64,000 nucleotides of DNA from Candidatus Methylomirabilales bacterium (GTDB taxonomy: Bacteria > Methylomirabilota > Methylomirabilia > Methylomirabilales > CSP1-5), in contig JBHIAH010000001.1 of assembly GCA_046758505.1 (NCBI GenBank), positions 1 to 64,000 on the forward strand, read 5' to 3'. Under the pieces are notes generated by a model that did no database searches, was not told where the DNA came from, and saw nothing but the letters and a program-made list of their open reading frames with translations. The translations under genes and the position numbers were made by a program. This document shows positions 2-61,493 of this stretch, piece after piece. The stretch's first letter is position 1. Every line of letters begins with the position of its first letter.

Positions 2-91
2 AAGCCGTCCAAGTGTCCGGTGTGCAGGAGTCAGCGCTTGGACCCACCGCGCTTCGTCATCCTCACAGAAGGACCACACGACCGTCGCTGA
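2..91 (+). CDS. C-terminal fragment of a probable HTH/Zn-ribbon transcriptional regulator (COG3357-like), truncated by the window edge
   Basis: Frame 2 reads KPSKCPVCRSQRLDPPRFVILTEGPHDRR*, which resembles the KPSRCPxCKSExIExPRF C-terminus of that family. Confidence 0.55.
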   Translation, partial: KPSKCPVCRSQRLDPPRFVILTEGPHDRR

Positions 92-22490: not shown

Positions 22491-24152
22491 ATGCACGGAT
22501 TCCGCTTCGACACCATCGACGCCGCCTCGCTGCCGCGCGTTCATCCCATTTTTCGGGACTATCTGAAGGGGACGCCTGCCCTCCGCGAATTCTACCGATG
22601 GGACCCTCGCGAGCCGCAGGAGAAGCTTTTACACTGCCTGGCCCGGCGGAGCTATCCCCGGGACCAACTTGCCACCATCCTCCGGGACCAGAATCGGGCC
22701 TGGGGGGCAAGTGAGTCCCTCCTTGAAAGCATCGCACGCCTCCGCGACCCCCGCGCGATAACGGTAATAACGGGCCAGCAGGTCGGATTATTCGGAGGTC
22801 CCCTCTACACCCTGTACAAGGCTCTGACGGCGGTGACGGTCGCCCGCCAAGTGGAGTCCCAGTGGCAGATTCCCTGCCTCCCTCTCTTCTCCATGGCCTC
22901 GGAGGACACCGATTTTGCCGAGATCGACCACCTTGCCATGCCCGACCACCAGGACCAGGCCGCACTCATCCGCTACGCCCCGGACCAAGGCTTCGGAACC
23001 GACCTTCCGGTGACCCACACGCTCACCCCAAAGATCAAGCAGGCCGTCGCCGCCCTGGAGCAGGCGGCCGGGCCAGGCCGGCTTCAGGAGAGGGTGCTGA
23101 CGCTGCTTCGCGACTGTTACCAGCCCGGGGCAACGCTGGTCTCGGCCTTTGGCCGGCTGTTGAGCGCTCTCCTCGGGGAGCGAGGTCTCATCGTGGTAGA
23201 TCCTTCCGATCCGCGACTCAAGGCCTTGGCCCGCCCCCTCTTCCTCCGGGAGGTCGGCACGGCTCCCACCTCGGCGGGGCAGGTTCAGAGCGCCTGGGAC
23301 AAGCTCCGGGGACTCGGATACCCCCCTCGGGTCCGTCTCCGGGGGGAAGGTCCGAACCTTTTCTACGTCCACGAGGGGCGGTGGCCCCTCAAAAAAGCCG
23401 GCGACCGCGGGCAGCTTGTTGCCGGCGCAAAGCGATGGCGAGACGGGCAAGAACTCCAGCATCTCGTGGAGGAGACACCGGAGCGCTTCAGCCCCAATGT
23501 GGTACTCCGCCCCCTGGTGCACAGCTTCCTCTTCCCGACGCTCGTCCAGGTGGGCGGGCCTCACGAGATTGCCTACTTCGCCCAGCTCCGAGGGGTCTTT
23601 GACCACTTCGATATTCCGATGCCCTTCCTCCTCCCGCGGGCGAGCCTCACCATCGTGGAGGGACGGATCGAGCGACTCCTCAAGAAGCACGATCTGACCT
23701 TCCTGGCCCTCCAGGAAGATCCCGAACGGGTCGTGACCCAGGTTCTTCACCGCTCTCTCCCCAGGAGCTTCGTGGGGAAACAACAGCGGATCCGGCGGAC
23801 GATCCTCAAGAATTTCGCGGAACTCAAAATGCTGGTCTCGTCCCTCGATTCCACCCTGACCCCCCGCGTGGGCGGCGTCGAGGGGGTGGTGAAGAAACAG
23901 ATGGACGAGATGGAGCGACTCCTCCTTCGGTCCTTCAAGCGGCGCAACCAGGAAGTCCGTACCCAGGTGCTCCGGGTCCTGGCCCACCTCATGCCCGGGG
24001 GAGAACTCCAGGAGCGCGCGTACGGCTTCATCCCGTACCTCTGCCATCACGGCCTCCCCCTCACAGACCTGATCGCCGCGGCCGTTGACGGGCCCGGATG
24101 GGAGCACCGGGTCCTCTATGTGGCCGCATCGCGCACGACCGATGACCAATGA
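22491..24152 (+). CDS. bshC: Bacillithiol biosynthesis cysteine-adding enzyme
   Basis: TGQQVGLFGGPLYTLYKA, SEDTDFAEIDH, FSPNVVLRPL, GGPHEIAYFAQ, LQER. Confidence 0.93.
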   Translation: MHGFRFDTIDAASLPRVHPIFRDYLKGTPALREFYRWDPREPQEKLLHCLARRSYPRDQLATILRDQNRAWGASESLLESIARLRDPRAITVITGQQVGLFGGPLYTLYKALTAVTVARQVESQWQIPCLPLFSMASEDTDFAEIDHLAMPDHQDQAALIRYAPDQGFGTDLPVTHTLTPKIKQAVAALEQAAGPGRLQERVLTLLRDCYQPGATLVSAFGRLLSALLGERGLIVVDPSDPRLKALARPLFLREVGTAPTSAGQVQSAWDKLRGLGYPPRVRLRGEGPNLFYVHEGRWPLKKAGDRGQLVAGAKRWRDGQELQHLVEETPERFSPNVVLRPLVHSFLFPTLVQVGGPHEIAYFAQLRGVFDHFDIPMPFLLPRASLTIVEGRIERLLKKHDLTFLALQEDPERVVTQVLHRSLPRSFVGKQQRIRRTILKNFAELKMLVSSLDSTLTPRVGGVEGVVKKQMDEMERLLLRSFKRRNQEVRTQVLRVLAHLMPGGELQERAYGFIPYLCHHGLPLTDLIAAAVDGPGWEHRVLYVAASRTTDDQ

Positions 24153-24411
24153 CCGATGACCGAAGTGGCTAAGGGCGAGGAGGGGGTTCCTTCCGAGGCC
24201 GGCGACGTCTGGCTTGCGTCGGCCGGGGTCCCGCCGCCGGAGCGCAGCGCAGGTGGGGGTGGCCCGCATTGGCGAATGTCAACGCCTCGGCATGCGTAAC
24301 GCTGCCTCCGCGCATCACGCCCTCGGAGAATAATGGCGCCGCCGAGGAAGGTCCCTCCGAGCCATTAGTCGTCCGTCGAACATCGATCACCAGTCGCTGA
24401 TTGGACTTCCT

Positions 24412-25569
24412 ATGAGGATCGGTATCACCTGCTACCCCACGTACGGGGGAAGCGGCGCCATCGCCGCCGAGCTGGGGATCCAGCTCAGCCAACGGGGCCA
24501 CCAGGTCCACTTTGTCAGCTACGCCCTCCCCTTCCGCCTCCCGACGTTCCAGCAAGACATCTTCTTTCACCAGGTGGAGACGATGTCCTACCCCCTCTTC
24601 GAGCATGCCCCCTATACCATTACCTTGGCGGCCAAGATGGCGGATGTGGCGCAGGCAGAAGGGTTGGACCTGCTGCACGTCCACTATGCCATCCCGCATG
24701 CCGTCTCCGCCTTCCTGGCCCGAGAGGCGGTGGGGGGTCGACTGAAGGTCCTGACCACGCTCCACGGGACCGATATCACCCTCGTGGGGATCGATCCGTC
24801 CCTGCGCTCGATCACCCGGCTCGCCATCGACACGAGCGACCGGGTCACTGCCGTCTCGTCCTACCTGGAGCAGCGAACCCGCGAGACCCTCCAGCCCAGC
24901 CGCCCCATCCGGGTCATCCCGAACTTTGTAGACAGCTCCCGATTCCTTCCCGGACGGGAGGAACGGACCCGGAACCGTTTCGCCCACTCGGGCGAGCGAA
25001 TCCTCCTGCACCTGAGCAACTTCCGCCCCGTCAAGCGCGTCACCGACGTCATCCGGATATTTGCCAGGGTCCGCCAGGAGATTCCGGCGAAGCTTCTCAT
25101 GGTGGGGGACGGCGTGGAGCGCCCCACGGCCCAGCACCTGACCCGAGAGCTGAATATCGAGAAAGAGGTTGTCTTCCTGAGCCGTCAGGAAGACATCCCC
25201 GGACTCATGAAGGTCGCCGATCTCTTCCTGCTCCCGAGCGAACTGGAGTCTTTCGGGCTGGCGGCCCTCGAGGCCATGAGCTGCGGGGTCCCGGTCATCG
25301 CCAGTCGGGTGGGCGGTCTTCTCGAGCTGATCGAGGACGGGGTGAGCGGAATGTTGTATCACGTGGGAGACGTGGAGGGAATGGCCCAGGCAGCCCTCCG
25401 GGTGCTCACGGACGACGCCCACCACCATCGAGTGGCGCAGGCAGCCCGCCAACGGGTCCTCGACCACTTCGACGCCGCCCGCATCATCCCCGAGTACGAG
25501 GCCCTCTACCAAGAGGTTCTCGCGTGCGAGTCTCCCCCGCCCTTCCGACCAACGTCCGATGACCGATAA
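24412..25569 (+). CDS. bshA: N-acetyl-alpha-D-glucosaminyl L-malate synthase
   Basis: [53 protein letters not shown]. Confidence 0.95.
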
Positions 25570-27855: not shown

Positions 27856-28125
27856 TTACATCCTCTTGTGCATCTCGACCTTCACCCCAAGCTTCTCCAG
27901 GCCCTGCGTCAGCTTGGAAACGGCCTCATCGTTCTTGCCCTGCTTGTGCAGCGTGATCCCCTCTTGACAAAGCTTTGCGGCTTCTTTGTTCGGAGTCCTG
28001 CTCAGTTGGTTCTGGCACTGTTGGGAAAGCTTCGCGGCCTGCTGGGCCTGCCCTGCCCAGGCGGCCGGGACTACCGCGAGGCCGAGGACGGTCGCTACAA
28101 TAATTGGAAGTGTAACCATCTTCAT
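27856..28125 (-). CDS. Small secreted helical protein (89 aa, two Cys)
   Basis: RBS AAGGAG; signal peptide ending AWA. Confidence 0.75.
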   Translation of the reverse strand: MKMVTLPIIVATVLGLAVVPAAWAGQAQQAAKLSQQCQNQLSRTPNKEAAKLCQEGITLHKQGKNDEAVSKLTQGLEKLGVKVEMHKRM

Positions 28126-28327
28126 CTCGATCTCCTTCCTGAGAAAAAAGTGAGCGCCTCTCTCCTTCCGTCTTGACATGTACCGTTTTTTCTTCGCCCC
28201 GTCACCCCCTTTCCACGTCGGGTCCCCGCGACCCTCCGCGGGCCCGCCGACGGCCGGCCACGCTGTCCGTCTCGTCGGCCGGCGCACCCTTCCGAAGCCT
28301 CCTCCCCTCCTCATGAAGTTGAGAAAA

Positions 28328-28343
28328 GGCAACCTCCATGCCA
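28328..28343 (-). promoter_or_regulatory. Sigma-54 promoter
   Basis: TGGCATGGAGGTTGCC, GG-N10-GC. Confidence 0.7.
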
Positions 28344-28616: not shown

Positions 28617-29117
28617 TCAGAAATCGGCGGGGACCACCCTGCGGATGTACGGGGAAAGCCATCGGCTGAGATCGTTCAACTTCACGAGGTCAAACGTGGA
28701 GAAGTTCGGCCCGGCGTCTTTCGAGGAACGCCCCTTTCTGCTTACCTGCATCACCCCGAGGGCCTGTCCCCAGGGAATGAGAAGGGGAGCGGAGACCATC
28801 TTCTGGATCTCCAGCGGCCTATCTTCCTTGATCCGGATCCGCTCGTAGACATCCAGGTGTTTGATCCGCGGGAGGTCGTTGTCGATGCGCCCCCTCCCCG
28901 CCTGGAGGACTTTCCCGGCGATACTGGTGGCGCTCACCGGAAATGTGTTTATTTTCTCCGCGTACAGGATGAAGGGGTAAGCGAACCTCAGCATCAACCG
29001 ATGCTGTCGCAAGAGGAGAATCGCGACCTCATCCTCCTGTACCGAGAAGGCCCGCGCGACCGCCAATGCGAGGTTGTCCGTGAGCCGCTCGAAGAGATCC
29101 GGCGGCGCCACGCCCAT
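28617..29117 (-). CDS. Stand-alone GAF domain protein (start uncertain)
   Basis: SIAGKV, MVSAPLL...LGVMQVSRK...FSTFDL GAF pattern. Confidence 0.75.
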   Translation of the reverse strand: MGVAPPDLFERLTDNLALAVARAFSVQEDEVAILLLRQHRLMLRFAYPFILYAEKINTFPVSATSIAGKVLQAGRGRIDNDLPRIKHLDVYERIRIKEDRPLEIQKMVSAPLLIPWGQALGVMQVSRKGRSSKDAGPNFSTFDLVKLNDLSRWLSPYIRRVVPADF

Positions 29118-29467
29118 CTTTTGGAAGATCTCGAGCTCCCACCTGATTCTCAGGGGGACTTGGCCAGCCACGCGCCTGAGCAGGAGTCGCCGCTGGACCG
29201 TCCGCCCCCCGAGAGAGACCTTCCCCGCCCGTCGAGGATCCACGTCGCGCTTCACCTCCTCCTGGGGCTCCCTCGCAGGCAACAGTTATGCCAAATACAA
29301 CTGACCATGCAAAATCAAATGGTTAGAGTGCCTAAGAGACCCTGCGGCAGGCGAGGTTGCAGCAATTCCGGACACACAGGAGCTATACGAATCCCGCTTG
29401 GCCCCCCTCGACCATAAAGACACAGGGGAAAGCGGCAAGCGCGGCAGGGGGACCTGGTTCCTGCGAA

Positions 29468-30877
29468 TCAGAACGGAGCAACCTGCTCCGCGGTCGGCTC
29501 CGCTCAGCAATACCACGGTTCGGTGAGGTACGGGATCGTGACGCGGGGGGGGGCCTCGGCCGTGGGGGGTAGGGGGCGGACGGACCGCTGGGACGCCCGC
29601 TCGGCGAGCAACCAGACCTGCGAAAAGATTTCGCGCCGGCCATCCCCGCGCGCCGCGGCCGCCTCGACGAGCGCCTGAATGTCCGCCTGCAGCTGATCGA
29701 CCCGGGGAACACAGTGCCGCCAGGGGTAGACGAGGGCACCCTCGTCAAACGGCCCCACCATCCGCCGAACCTCGGGGAGCTCCAAGAGCTTTGAACCGGC
29801 AGGGATCAACAGCCGCATCGCGAGCTGAATGGGGGCGACATGGTCGATGAGATCGAGCGCTGCCAAAATCGAGAGCAGCTCCTGGTAGCCCTCGATCGAG
29901 ATCCACGGCGTGAATGCCACGAAGGTCGGGTTCAGGATCAGTCCGGCCTCGCGACAGAGGCGGACGACCTGAATAAAATCCTCCCGGGTATGACCCTTGT
30001 CCAGCAGGGCAAGCGTGCGCTCATCGACGGATTCCACCGCACTGGTGACAAACAGGCACCCGGTCTCTTTGAGTGTTCTCAGGTGCTCCGCGTACTTCAG
30101 GAGGTGCTCAATTTTTGTGGTTACGTCATAGGTGAGGTGCGGGTGTTCCCCGTGCAGCCCCCGGACCAGGGCCAGGGAATGCCCAATCCCGTTGAAAAAG
30201 TCGGGGTCACCGAAGGTGATGTGCTCCGCGCCAGCCGCCACCTGGTGCCTGATATCTTCCAGGACCACATCCCGCTGCACGATCCGGAATTGCCCCTGAT
30301 AGACCGGAACGACCGGGCAGTGGCGACACCAGTGCTTGCAGCCCCGGCTTGCTTCTGTATAGCCCACGGTGCGAGACTGCCCATTCCCGAGTTCGAGCCG
30401 CGCATACTTCGACAGGGCCGCCAGCCCCGTCCGGTCCGGGACCAGAAACCGTTGCCTGGCCAACGAGACGGGGGGCTCAACCTGAGAGACTCTCCTCTCC
30501 GTCGCCGGCGCAGCACCGAGCCGCGCCACCAGACTCACCAGTCCTGCTTCGAACTCCCCCCCGAGGATAGAATCCGCACCCAGCTTTCGCAGGAAGGCCT
30601 CATTCATCGAGGCGTAGAGGCCGTAAAAGCAGAGATGAGCGTACGGATTGAGTCCCTGAACCCGCTCGACGACCCGTGTCGCGATGCGCGTCGCCGTGTG
30701 CATCGGCAGATAGAACGCCACGACGTCAGCGGCACGGATCGCCTCCTCGTTCAGGTGCTCCACGGCCAGGTCGAGACACGTCACCCGGGCACCGGCCCGC
30801 CGGAGCCAGGCGGCGGGTGAGGCAAGCCCAAAGGGCTGCCGACCCAATTCGTACGTGGAGATCAGCACGACGTGCAT
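29468..30877 (-). CDS. CUAEP-tail radical SAM selenoprotein (UGA at 29504-29506 read as Sec)
   Basis: SRGCKHWCRHC CxxxCxxC; the C-terminus continues EPWYC-U-AEPTAEQVAPF* past the UGA. Confidence 0.9.
29474..29490 (-). promoter_or_regulatory. Bacterial SECIS-like hairpin
   Basis: CGGAGCA-GGT-TGCTCCG perfect 7-bp stem 13 nt after the UGA, with a G-containing apical loop. Confidence 0.75.
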
Positions 30878-30980
30878 CGCAGACTCTTTACCACAAGCCA
30901 GGACACGCGGAAGAGAAGACACCTTCCCGGCGCCCCCTTGGGGGGCATCGGGGGCGCTTTTTCAGGAGCCTTCGCAGGCG

Positions 30981-31577
30981 TCAGGCGAGAGGAGAGTGCC
31001 CACCCTTGGATGGCTGATAGTACGGATTATTCCCGGCAGCGTGGTCGGTGGTGTCGATGATCTGGGTGATCCCGGGGACCGCCTCTTTGATCATCACCTC
31101 AATCCCCTGTTTCAGGGTCACGTCAGCCATCCCGCACCCCTGGCAACCCCCGCCGAGGGCGATGTAGGCGATGTCGTCCTTCACGTCGAGGAGCGCGACG
31201 TGTCCGCCGTGCGTTGCCACGCCCGGGTTGATCTGGGTATCGATCACCTCTTGCACGGCCTGCGCCTTCGGCTCGGTCCAGAGGGGGTTCGGGTTGTCAA
31301 TCTTGAAGCCGCTTTCGTACATCCCGTCGACGTAGTCGACCGTCGCACCCTTGAGGTTCGGCGCGCTCTCAGGATCGATGACCACCTGGAGACCCCCGAC
31401 GTCGGCCACGGTGTCTTCAGCCTCTTTCTCCTCTTCTCCCACAAACTGAAGCTCATACCGGAAACCGCCGGGACCGCGCCCCTTAATTGCCACGCGCAGC
31501 GCGAGACCCGTCTGCCCTTCGGCCTCCATGAGCGCCAGGATCTTCTTTGTCGCCGCCTCGGTGATTGTGAGCATCAT
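30981..31577 (-). CDS. nfuA: NfuA-type Fe-S carrier (degenerate A-type domain plus NifU-C)
   Basis: LTITEAA, GATVDY...GFKIDNPN, INPGVATHGG, GGGCQGCG. Confidence 0.9.
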   Translation of the reverse strand: MMLTITEAATKKILALMEAEGQTGLALRVAIKGRGPGGFRYELQFVGEEEKEAEDTVADVGGLQVVIDPESAPNLKGATVDYVDGMYESGFKIDNPNPLWTEPKAQAVQEVIDTQINPGVATHGGHVALLDVKDDIAYIALGGGCQGCGMADVTLKQGIEVMIKEAVPGITQIIDTTDHAAGNNPYYQPSKGGHSPLA

Positions 31578-61465: not shown

Positions 61466-61493
61466 AAATCCAGGACGAGCTATAGGGGGAGCT

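Follow-up and report, generated by a model that had tools for sequence, protein, structure and literature searches.

The question raised by this locus is whether a UGA codon close to the 3' end of a radical SAM gene ends the protein or is read as selenocysteine (Sec) and, if the latter, what chemistry a Cys-Sec tail might serve. The window (the whole stretch of DNA analysed, 64,000 nucleotides from a Candidatus Methylomirabilales bacterium) carries the gene on its minus strand, where positions 29520-29468 translate as W-Y-C-TGA-A-E-P-T-A-E-Q-V-A-P-F-TGA. The program-made list of open reading frames closes the gene at the first of these TGA codons (29504..30922), so that it truncates the gene, as a preliminary description of this DNA had pointed out. 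Read through, the protein carries a C457-U458-A-E-P tail with 11 residues between the predicted Sec458 and the terminal stop (Table 1). The start codon is likely ATG 30877 rather than GTG 30922, because the hidden Markov model (HMM) match begins at residue 18 of the longer reading frame and close relatives align from that methionine. Across 41 loci of the TGA type, the triplet corresponding to 29468-29470 is TGA in 17, TAA in 10 and TAG in 2; in the other 12 the tail is longer and a sense codon stands there. The second TGA is therefore a real stop, since TAA or TAG stands in its place in 12/41 loci, and read-through at this position is ruled out.

Table 1 Features of the locus, in window coordinates
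Feature	Position	Strand	Basis or remark
CUAEP-tail radical SAM gene	29468..30877	minus	469 aa with predicted Sec458; NF040546 match, PF04055, model
In-frame TGA, predicted selenocysteine 458	29504..29506	minus	TGA/Cys alternation in homologues
Cys457 codon, partner in the predicted Cys-Sec pair	29507..29509	minus	Invariant, 76/76 aligned proteins
True stop codon, TGA here	29468..29470	minus	TAA/TAG at the same place in other loci
CxxxCxxC [4Fe-4S] motif, C180-C184-C187	30317..30340	minus	Invariant in the alignment
SECIS hairpin, +13 to +31 after the UGA	29473..29491	minus	Core +14..19 with +25..30; invariant G at +21
3' arm of lower stem GCGGA/TTCGC	29463..29467	minus	Not conserved, 4/29 TGA tails
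NfuA-type Fe-S carrier gene (IscA-like + NifU domain)	30981..31577	minus	103 bp upstream of the radical SAM gene
L-amino-acid-ligase-type ATP-grasp gene, 440 aa	31693..33015	minus	ATPgrasp_N, ATP-grasp_4, LAL_C2; Cys295 in RxIGGLC

The protein matches NF040546, the CUAEP/CCAEP-tail radical SAM (seleno)protein family, with 615.2 bits when truncated and 631.1 bits when read through, against a cut-off of 500; the same profile passes in 0/14 control genomes. ArsL (NF040542) is the next NCBIfam family, at 293.3 bits without reaching its cut-off of 450, and the third family gives 50 bits. The preliminary description was correct that a family with this tail had already been described, and the gene passes its cut-off. 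Judged from its sequence, the gene is one more member of this named family with no family-level difference, and the recoding itself is not a discovery because NCBI names the family for its Cys-Sec tail. The family is mentioned once, as uncharacterized, in the portion of Haft and Gwadz drawn on here (10.1101/2022.07.06.499078). A literature search on the motif names CUAEP and CCAEP found nothing beyond that paper; most subscription journals and supplements lay outside the search, so that absence from print is not established. Neither 'NF040546' nor 'CUAEP' appears in the main text of a 2026 selenoproteome review. The family is a broad sister group of ArsL, with relatives encoded in at least 570 of the first 600 candidate stretches of the genome collection. 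The nearest named relatives among the matches listed belong to NC10/Methylomirabilota (81-83% identity), and the gene falls within this group on the tree. Two family copies each are found in relatives G014 (C107, C196) and G013 (C76, C134), the G014 pair coming from different clades by score.

Conservation continues past the in-frame codon. An order-wide search returned 27 full-length family matches in 26/61 genomes, and 27/27 contain exactly one TGA. Across phyla, 80 loci comprise 14 with TGA, 65 with a Cys codon and 1 that is truncated, which is the Cys/UGA alternation that the preliminary description had proposed to look for by aligning homologues. The motif W[FY]C(U/C)[AS]EP is present in 106/107 loci, and C457, position 458, E460 and P461 are invariant in the 76 proteins aligned. 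A-E-P is kept in TGA and Cys forms alike; a lack of conservation downstream of the UGA, which had been named as a finding that would speak against recoding, is thus not what these loci display. The Sec/Cys label needs 7 changes on a quick unrooted tree of 99 proteins, at least 5 of them forced by strong branches. Proteins shorter than 430 aa (7/106) were excluded from this tree, and the alignment (A2) holds 76/100 proteins. Two Chloroflexota loci (L057 and L059) encode Cys forms with the tail AEPTEEQFAPL, and in L057 the hairpin described below is still partly paired; these two may be recent reversions from Sec to Cys, their genomes having kept selA.

Downstream of the UGA lies a perfect 7-bp hairpin, CGGAGCA-GGU-UGCUCCG (29490-29474), which starts 14 nt after the TGA, leaving a 13-nt spacer, and has an energy of -9.8 kcal/mol, or -11.8 kcal/mol with an extra G-U pair. 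The hairpin is present as first described, but its conserved core is only 6 bp with a 5-nt loop AG(G/U)UN, and the seventh pair closes in only 12/29 distinct TGA tails. For the comparison of tails, one locus cut short before the tail (L050) was excluded and 16/106 tails with identical first 33 nt were dropped. Among the 90 distinct tails, all six pairs (+14..19/+25..30) are kept in 27/29 TGA tails and 0/61 Cys tails, with a mean of 5.9 versus 3.1 pairs kept, counts that overstate the contrast because kin are not independent. Changes on both sides of the stem (compensatory) occur at 4/6 pairs and arise in separate clades; the studied gene has its own, from A-U to C-G, with Glu replaced by Ala. 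The covariation score was reached by 0/500 shuffles, and slid registers were only 39-60% paired. Within the 3' arm, Ala is encoded by GCT in 24/24 TGA tails but in 5/30 Cys tails, and G stands at +21 in 29/29 TGA tails. Within the host genome, a looser hairpin rule is met after 33/2128 long open reading frames ending in TGA, 22/1094 ending in TAG and 9/855 ending in TAA, which puts the chance of such a hairpin after a TGA at about 2%.

The model of bacterial SECIS elements in PMC13188914, as given in the parts of that paper drawn on here, has a loop of 3-5 nt, a stem of 6-8 bp and an energy below -7.5 kcal/mol (legend of Fig. 2A), with a G first or second in the loop at 19-20 nt from the UGA, and the hairpin satisfies all four of these constraints. 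SECIS prediction, another check suggested at the outset, thus yields an element that fits the bacterial model and covaries only in UGA-bearing genes. Compared with the bacterial consensus, the hairpin lies within the last ten codons, ending three bases before the stop, and is without a conserved lower stem. A possible lower stem, GCGGA/TTCGC, had been put forward; it exists here, but it does not hold up as a conserved part of the element, since it is found in 4/29 TGA tails, all from the genus of the studied genome, and a stem in any register is also found in 8/61 Cys tails.

Folding of the naked RNA favours a different structure, with a SECIS pair probability of about 0.03; when pairing is forbidden at the UGA and over the 11 nt that follow it, the SECIS comes out as the best fold. 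The minimum-energy fold, which pairs +3..+12 with the 3' arm, was rejected as the selected structure: it is 78.9% paired, shows no two-sided change, and its covariation score was reached by 487/500 shuffles. We infer that the ribosome itself holds the UGA and these 11 nt unpaired and lets the SECIS form. A ribosome paused on the UGA would cover about the next 11 nt, so that the hairpin at +14..+30 could form; SelB-GTP-Sec-tRNA would then bind the G-containing loop, and Sec would be inserted and followed by 11 more residues.

The means to decode the codon are encoded in the host genome (96.8% complete). The preliminary description had advised a search for selA, selB, selC and selD and regarded a genome without Sec machinery as an argument against recoding; all four were found, as tRNA-Sec and as sel genes above their cut-offs, and selD has an in-frame TGA of its own. 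The selB gene runs off a contig after 522 aa, and no SECIS-binding wing-3 domain for it turned up in the assembly. More widely, selA is present in 53/61 genomes of the order and in 25/25 high-quality genomes, and the four TGA-bearing genomes of the order without selA are 64-74% complete. Across phyla, where genome searches for selA and the partner ligase used 50/80 loci, selA occurs in 10/11 TGA-form genomes; its presence discriminates weakly because it also occurs in 23/39 Cys-form genomes.

The in-frame UGA is thus predicted, with near certainty, to be decoded as selenocysteine: the frame, the family, the alternation, the hairpin and the Sec genes all agree with the earlier proposal that UGA recoding gives this radical SAM enzyme a Cys-Sec tail. 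We hold it very improbable that the UGA is a true stop, leaving a protein that ends in W-Y-C, or that it is read as Cys or Trp, whether by leaky read-through or by a changed code. In support of these readings, TGA is more frequent than any other stop in the genome (2128 long open reading frames), naked mRNA favours the fold that hides the hairpin, and a RefSeq member from Thermomicrobium roseum is listed in the plasmid table as ending at TGA, but A-E-P is conserved beyond the codon in both forms, the hairpin is retained only where the codon is TGA, the competing fold is without any two-sided change (0/9 pairs), and the genome has a tRNA-Sec(UCA) while the single tRNA-Trp found has a CCA anticodon. 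The Thermomicrobium roseum member (L129:4935-6371) has its annotated end at TGA, yet A-E-P continues in frame. Gene callers that cut the protein at Cys457 lose the Sec and the tail, the parts on which the chemistry probably depends, and this RefSeq-derived record is an example.

Further in-frame TGA codons were seen elsewhere in the host genome (G000). An ArsM-like methyltransferase gene beside heavy-metal genes (G000:C10:46496-47245, plus strand) has an in-frame TGA (W-S-E-U-V-G-G) with a 7-bp hairpin and a GUU loop at +12, and it likely encodes a selenoprotein; a 69% identical gene is found in L041, about 4.4 kb away from the radical SAM gene there. Near position 61472 of G000:C7 (plus strand), an in-frame TGA in T-P-A-U-G-L-C is accompanied by a 6-bp hairpin at +13, and the apparent product is a GrdB-like selenoprotein. 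A second ArsM-like gene (G000:C126:3076-3633, minus strand) ends at a contig edge and scores 229.6 bits over part of the model.

What the enzyme might do is constrained first by its neighbours. The radical SAM gene is preceded on its strand by genes for an NfuA-type Fe-S carrier and an ATP-grasp ligase, with intergenic gaps of 103 bp (NfuA/radical SAM) and 115 bp (ligase/NfuA). A ligase of this type flanks 46/81 loci, in most cases directly after the radical SAM gene, and Fe-S helper genes flank 42/81 (YggX at 32, Nfu at 10 others). Among the 61 genomes of the order, 23 have both the radical SAM and the ligase gene, 5 the radical SAM gene only, 6 the ligase only and 27 neither; in genomes at least 90% complete the ligase is present in 15/15 radical SAM-positive but 1/17 radical SAM-negative genomes, although co-occurrence counts too are inflated by kinship. 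Across phyla, the ligase is found in 43/50 genomes with the radical SAM gene. Four of the 7/50 genomes without a ligase match come from a clade flanked by a linalool-dehydratase-like gene, and in another a fragment of the ligase lies where a contig ends. In this proteobacterial clade (L040, L043, L062, L063, L065, L066, L069 and L070), the gene for the Cys-form enzyme comes after one for a 545-aa linalool-dehydratase-like protein, and an EthD gene is often present too; the ligase match is absent from the four genomes of the clade tested. A scan for promoters and terminators gave 3 promoter-like sites where 0.9 would be expected and 5 terminator-like sites where 3.6 would be, and is uninformative on whether the genes form an operon. 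Farther off in the window, 4-7 kb away, bshC and bshA of bacillithiol synthesis score above their cut-offs (22491-25569, plus strand), with linkage only in close relatives. The downstream reading frames at 28617-29282 and 27856-28332 (both minus strand) have no Pfam or NCBIfam match and are neighbours of the gene in no more than one or two relatives.

The best solved match of the partner ligase is 3VOT (BL00235), with an E value of 8.7e-38, and none of the curated NCBIfam cut-offs is passed. Its layout of ATPgrasp_N, ATP-grasp_4 and LAL_C2 is that of the L-amino acid ligases BL00235/3VOT, BacD and RizA, of which BL00235 makes Met-Gly and Met-Met (in the part of PMC6920838 drawn on here). Unlike BL00235, BacD and RizA, the partner ligase carries a Cys in the motif RxIGG[LY]C. 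This Cys is present in 64/64 motif matches, duplicates included, and is encoded by TGC or TGT in all of them, so that Sec is not seen at this position.

The second source of constraint is structure. The domain layout comprises an N-terminal B12-binding-like domain, a radical SAM barrel and C-terminal helices with the tail, and PF04055 (radical SAM) scores 48.1 bits against a cut-off of 29.5. The predicted model (pLDDT 93.4, about 80 over residues 451-469) shows a B12-binding-like domain on a partial barrel, and gives the fold, not the function. It matches AprD4, MgmA, OxsB, TsrM and CysS (VIA Z 24-27, rmsd 3.2-4.6 over 350-415 residues, <20% identity) and MiaB and RimO (VIA Z 22-23, rmsd 3.4-4.0 over 350-370 residues), and matches to the B12 enzymes and to AprD4 are about equal. 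No solved structure of ArsL or of a CUAEP protein was found by sequence search or among the fold matches listed.

ArsL offers the closest analogy for the chemistry. According to the ArsL preprints, this enzyme stands apart from other CxxxCxxC radical SAM enzymes in making an aminocarboxypropyl (ACP) species, and formation of its product depends on the CC motif at its C-terminus, which binds As(III) (10.1101/2024.02.01.577332; 10.64898/2026.04.29.721666). We suggest ArsL-like chemistry for the CUAEP enzyme because ArsL is its next-best family (293 bits), shares 35% identity and 33/55 core residues, and has a CC tail that binds As(III). On this analogy, NfuA, or elsewhere YggX or an IscA-type protein, would supply or repair the [4Fe-4S] cluster, which would cleave SAM to MTA and an ACP species. 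The C457-U458 pair would hold a soft acceptor atom that takes the ACP group, giving a methionine-like amino acid that the ligase would join to a second amino acid. The whole chain, in which the Cys-Sec pair holds an atom that receives the ACP group and the product is then ligated, has in our estimate a little less than an even chance of being right. More tentative still is the general form of the idea, which we would sooner expect to fail than to hold, that the CUAEP enzyme, ligase and Fe-S helper together make up an undescribed pathway of wide distribution, which builds an ACP-derived C-metalloid (arsenic) or C-chalcogen amino acid into a peptide.

As(III) is the leading acceptor candidate, but arsenic as the substrate is unproven because arsenic-resistance genes are nearly missing from CUAEP neighbourhoods. 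Queries for ArsN1, ArsR, ArsB and aquaporin matched at 0/80 CUAEP loci, and an ArsM-like gene lies near the CUAEP gene in 1/80, whereas ars genes are present at 5/5 of the ArsL-type plasmid loci opened. A search for ArsL itself in the phylum at E 1e-120 matched in 0/41 genomes; the control also matched nowhere, so the result does not show ArsL to be absent.

With Sec decoded, the enzyme might instead insert sulfur or selenium, its Cys-Sec tail binding a sacrificial second Fe-S cluster, or a persulfide or perselenide, that the NfuA, YggX or IscA-type neighbours rebuild, for which the rebuilding of the auxiliary cluster of LipA by NfuA is a precedent. The frequency of Fe-S helpers beside the gene, the near lack of arsenic genes and the resemblance of the model to MiaB and RimO would all fit, but only three invariant Cys/Sec residues lie outside the radical SAM motif (C274, C457 and U458), and MiaB-type families score about 20 bits against 293 for ArsL. 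Removal of the ArsL tail, moreover, leaves the iron and sulfur content of that enzyme unchanged (10.1101/2024.02.01.577332), and we regard insertion of sulfur or selenium as unlikely.

The B12-binding-like domain raises a further reading, in which Sec is again decoded and a class B cobalamin-dependent enzyme uses a 5'-deoxyadenosyl radical to methylate or rearrange an amino acid for the ligase. PF02310 (B12-binding) scores 31.3 bits on the CUAEP protein, just below its cut-off of 32.1, but ArsL falls in the same range (29.4 bits) and its in vitro reactions list no cobalamin (10.1101/2024.02.01.577332). Likewise, the fold matches to AprD4, MgmA, OxsB, TsrM and CysS are set against identities below 20% to all solved B12 enzymes. 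His60, which is invariant in the CUAEP family and Phe in ArsL, would suit a cobalamin enzyme, but the invariant Cys-Sec pair would be left unexplained, and we consider this reading improbable. What probability remains falls to chemistry outside ACP transfer, sulfur or selenium insertion and cobalamin dependence.

Returning to ArsL-like ACP transfer, the comparison with ArsL shows both what is shared and what differs. The two have the same domain layout, with 35% identity over about 400 residues, and an adjacent Cys-Cys or Cys-Sec pair at the C-terminus; 33/55 invariant residues of the CUAEP core are identical in 4/4 ArsL-type proteins, compared with 20/55 in the one HpnR tested. Unlike ArsL, in which the tail has three Cys (RCCLKC/CCxxC), the CUAEP tail WYCUAEP offers two thiol/selenol groups and follows an insertion of about 45 residues. 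Invariant CUAEP residues also differ from those of ArsL (H60/F, Y88/H or Y, H186/Y, P188/S, K255/R and C274/V or L), and Cys274, a further invariant cysteine, could serve as a third ligand.

An ATP-grasp gene is present at 4/5 of the ArsL-type loci opened. These genes (L128:1741-2964, L130:2436-3668, L131:2483-3706 and L132:7572-8777) are on plasmids of Priestia, Alicyclobacillus and Pantoea and are L-amino-acid-ligase-like where scanned, and two are accompanied by ArsM and an MFS transporter gene. The ArsL-linked ligases form a separate group, 21-28% identical to the CUAEP partner ligase and without the RxIGGLC Cys, so the pairing with ATP-grasp genes is parallel rather than a product of recent shared descent. 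Their presence in ArsL-type clusters suggests a peptide form of arsinothricin. No literature linking ATP-grasp genes to ArsL arsenic clusters was found in a search that left most subscription journals and supplements outside. These parallel genes are new here, together with the quantified contrast in SECIS between Sec and Cys forms; if the proposed chemistry is true, they would mark a parallel, undescribed peptide form of arsinothricin, and if the CUAEP enzyme yields an amino acid or peptide of a new carbon-heteroatom type, its locus would encode a new natural-product pathway. Unlike ArsL, the CUAEP family uses Sec in many lineages, which, if the ArsL-like reading holds, would make it a rare example of radical chemistry in which Sec serves as the ligand that holds the substrate.
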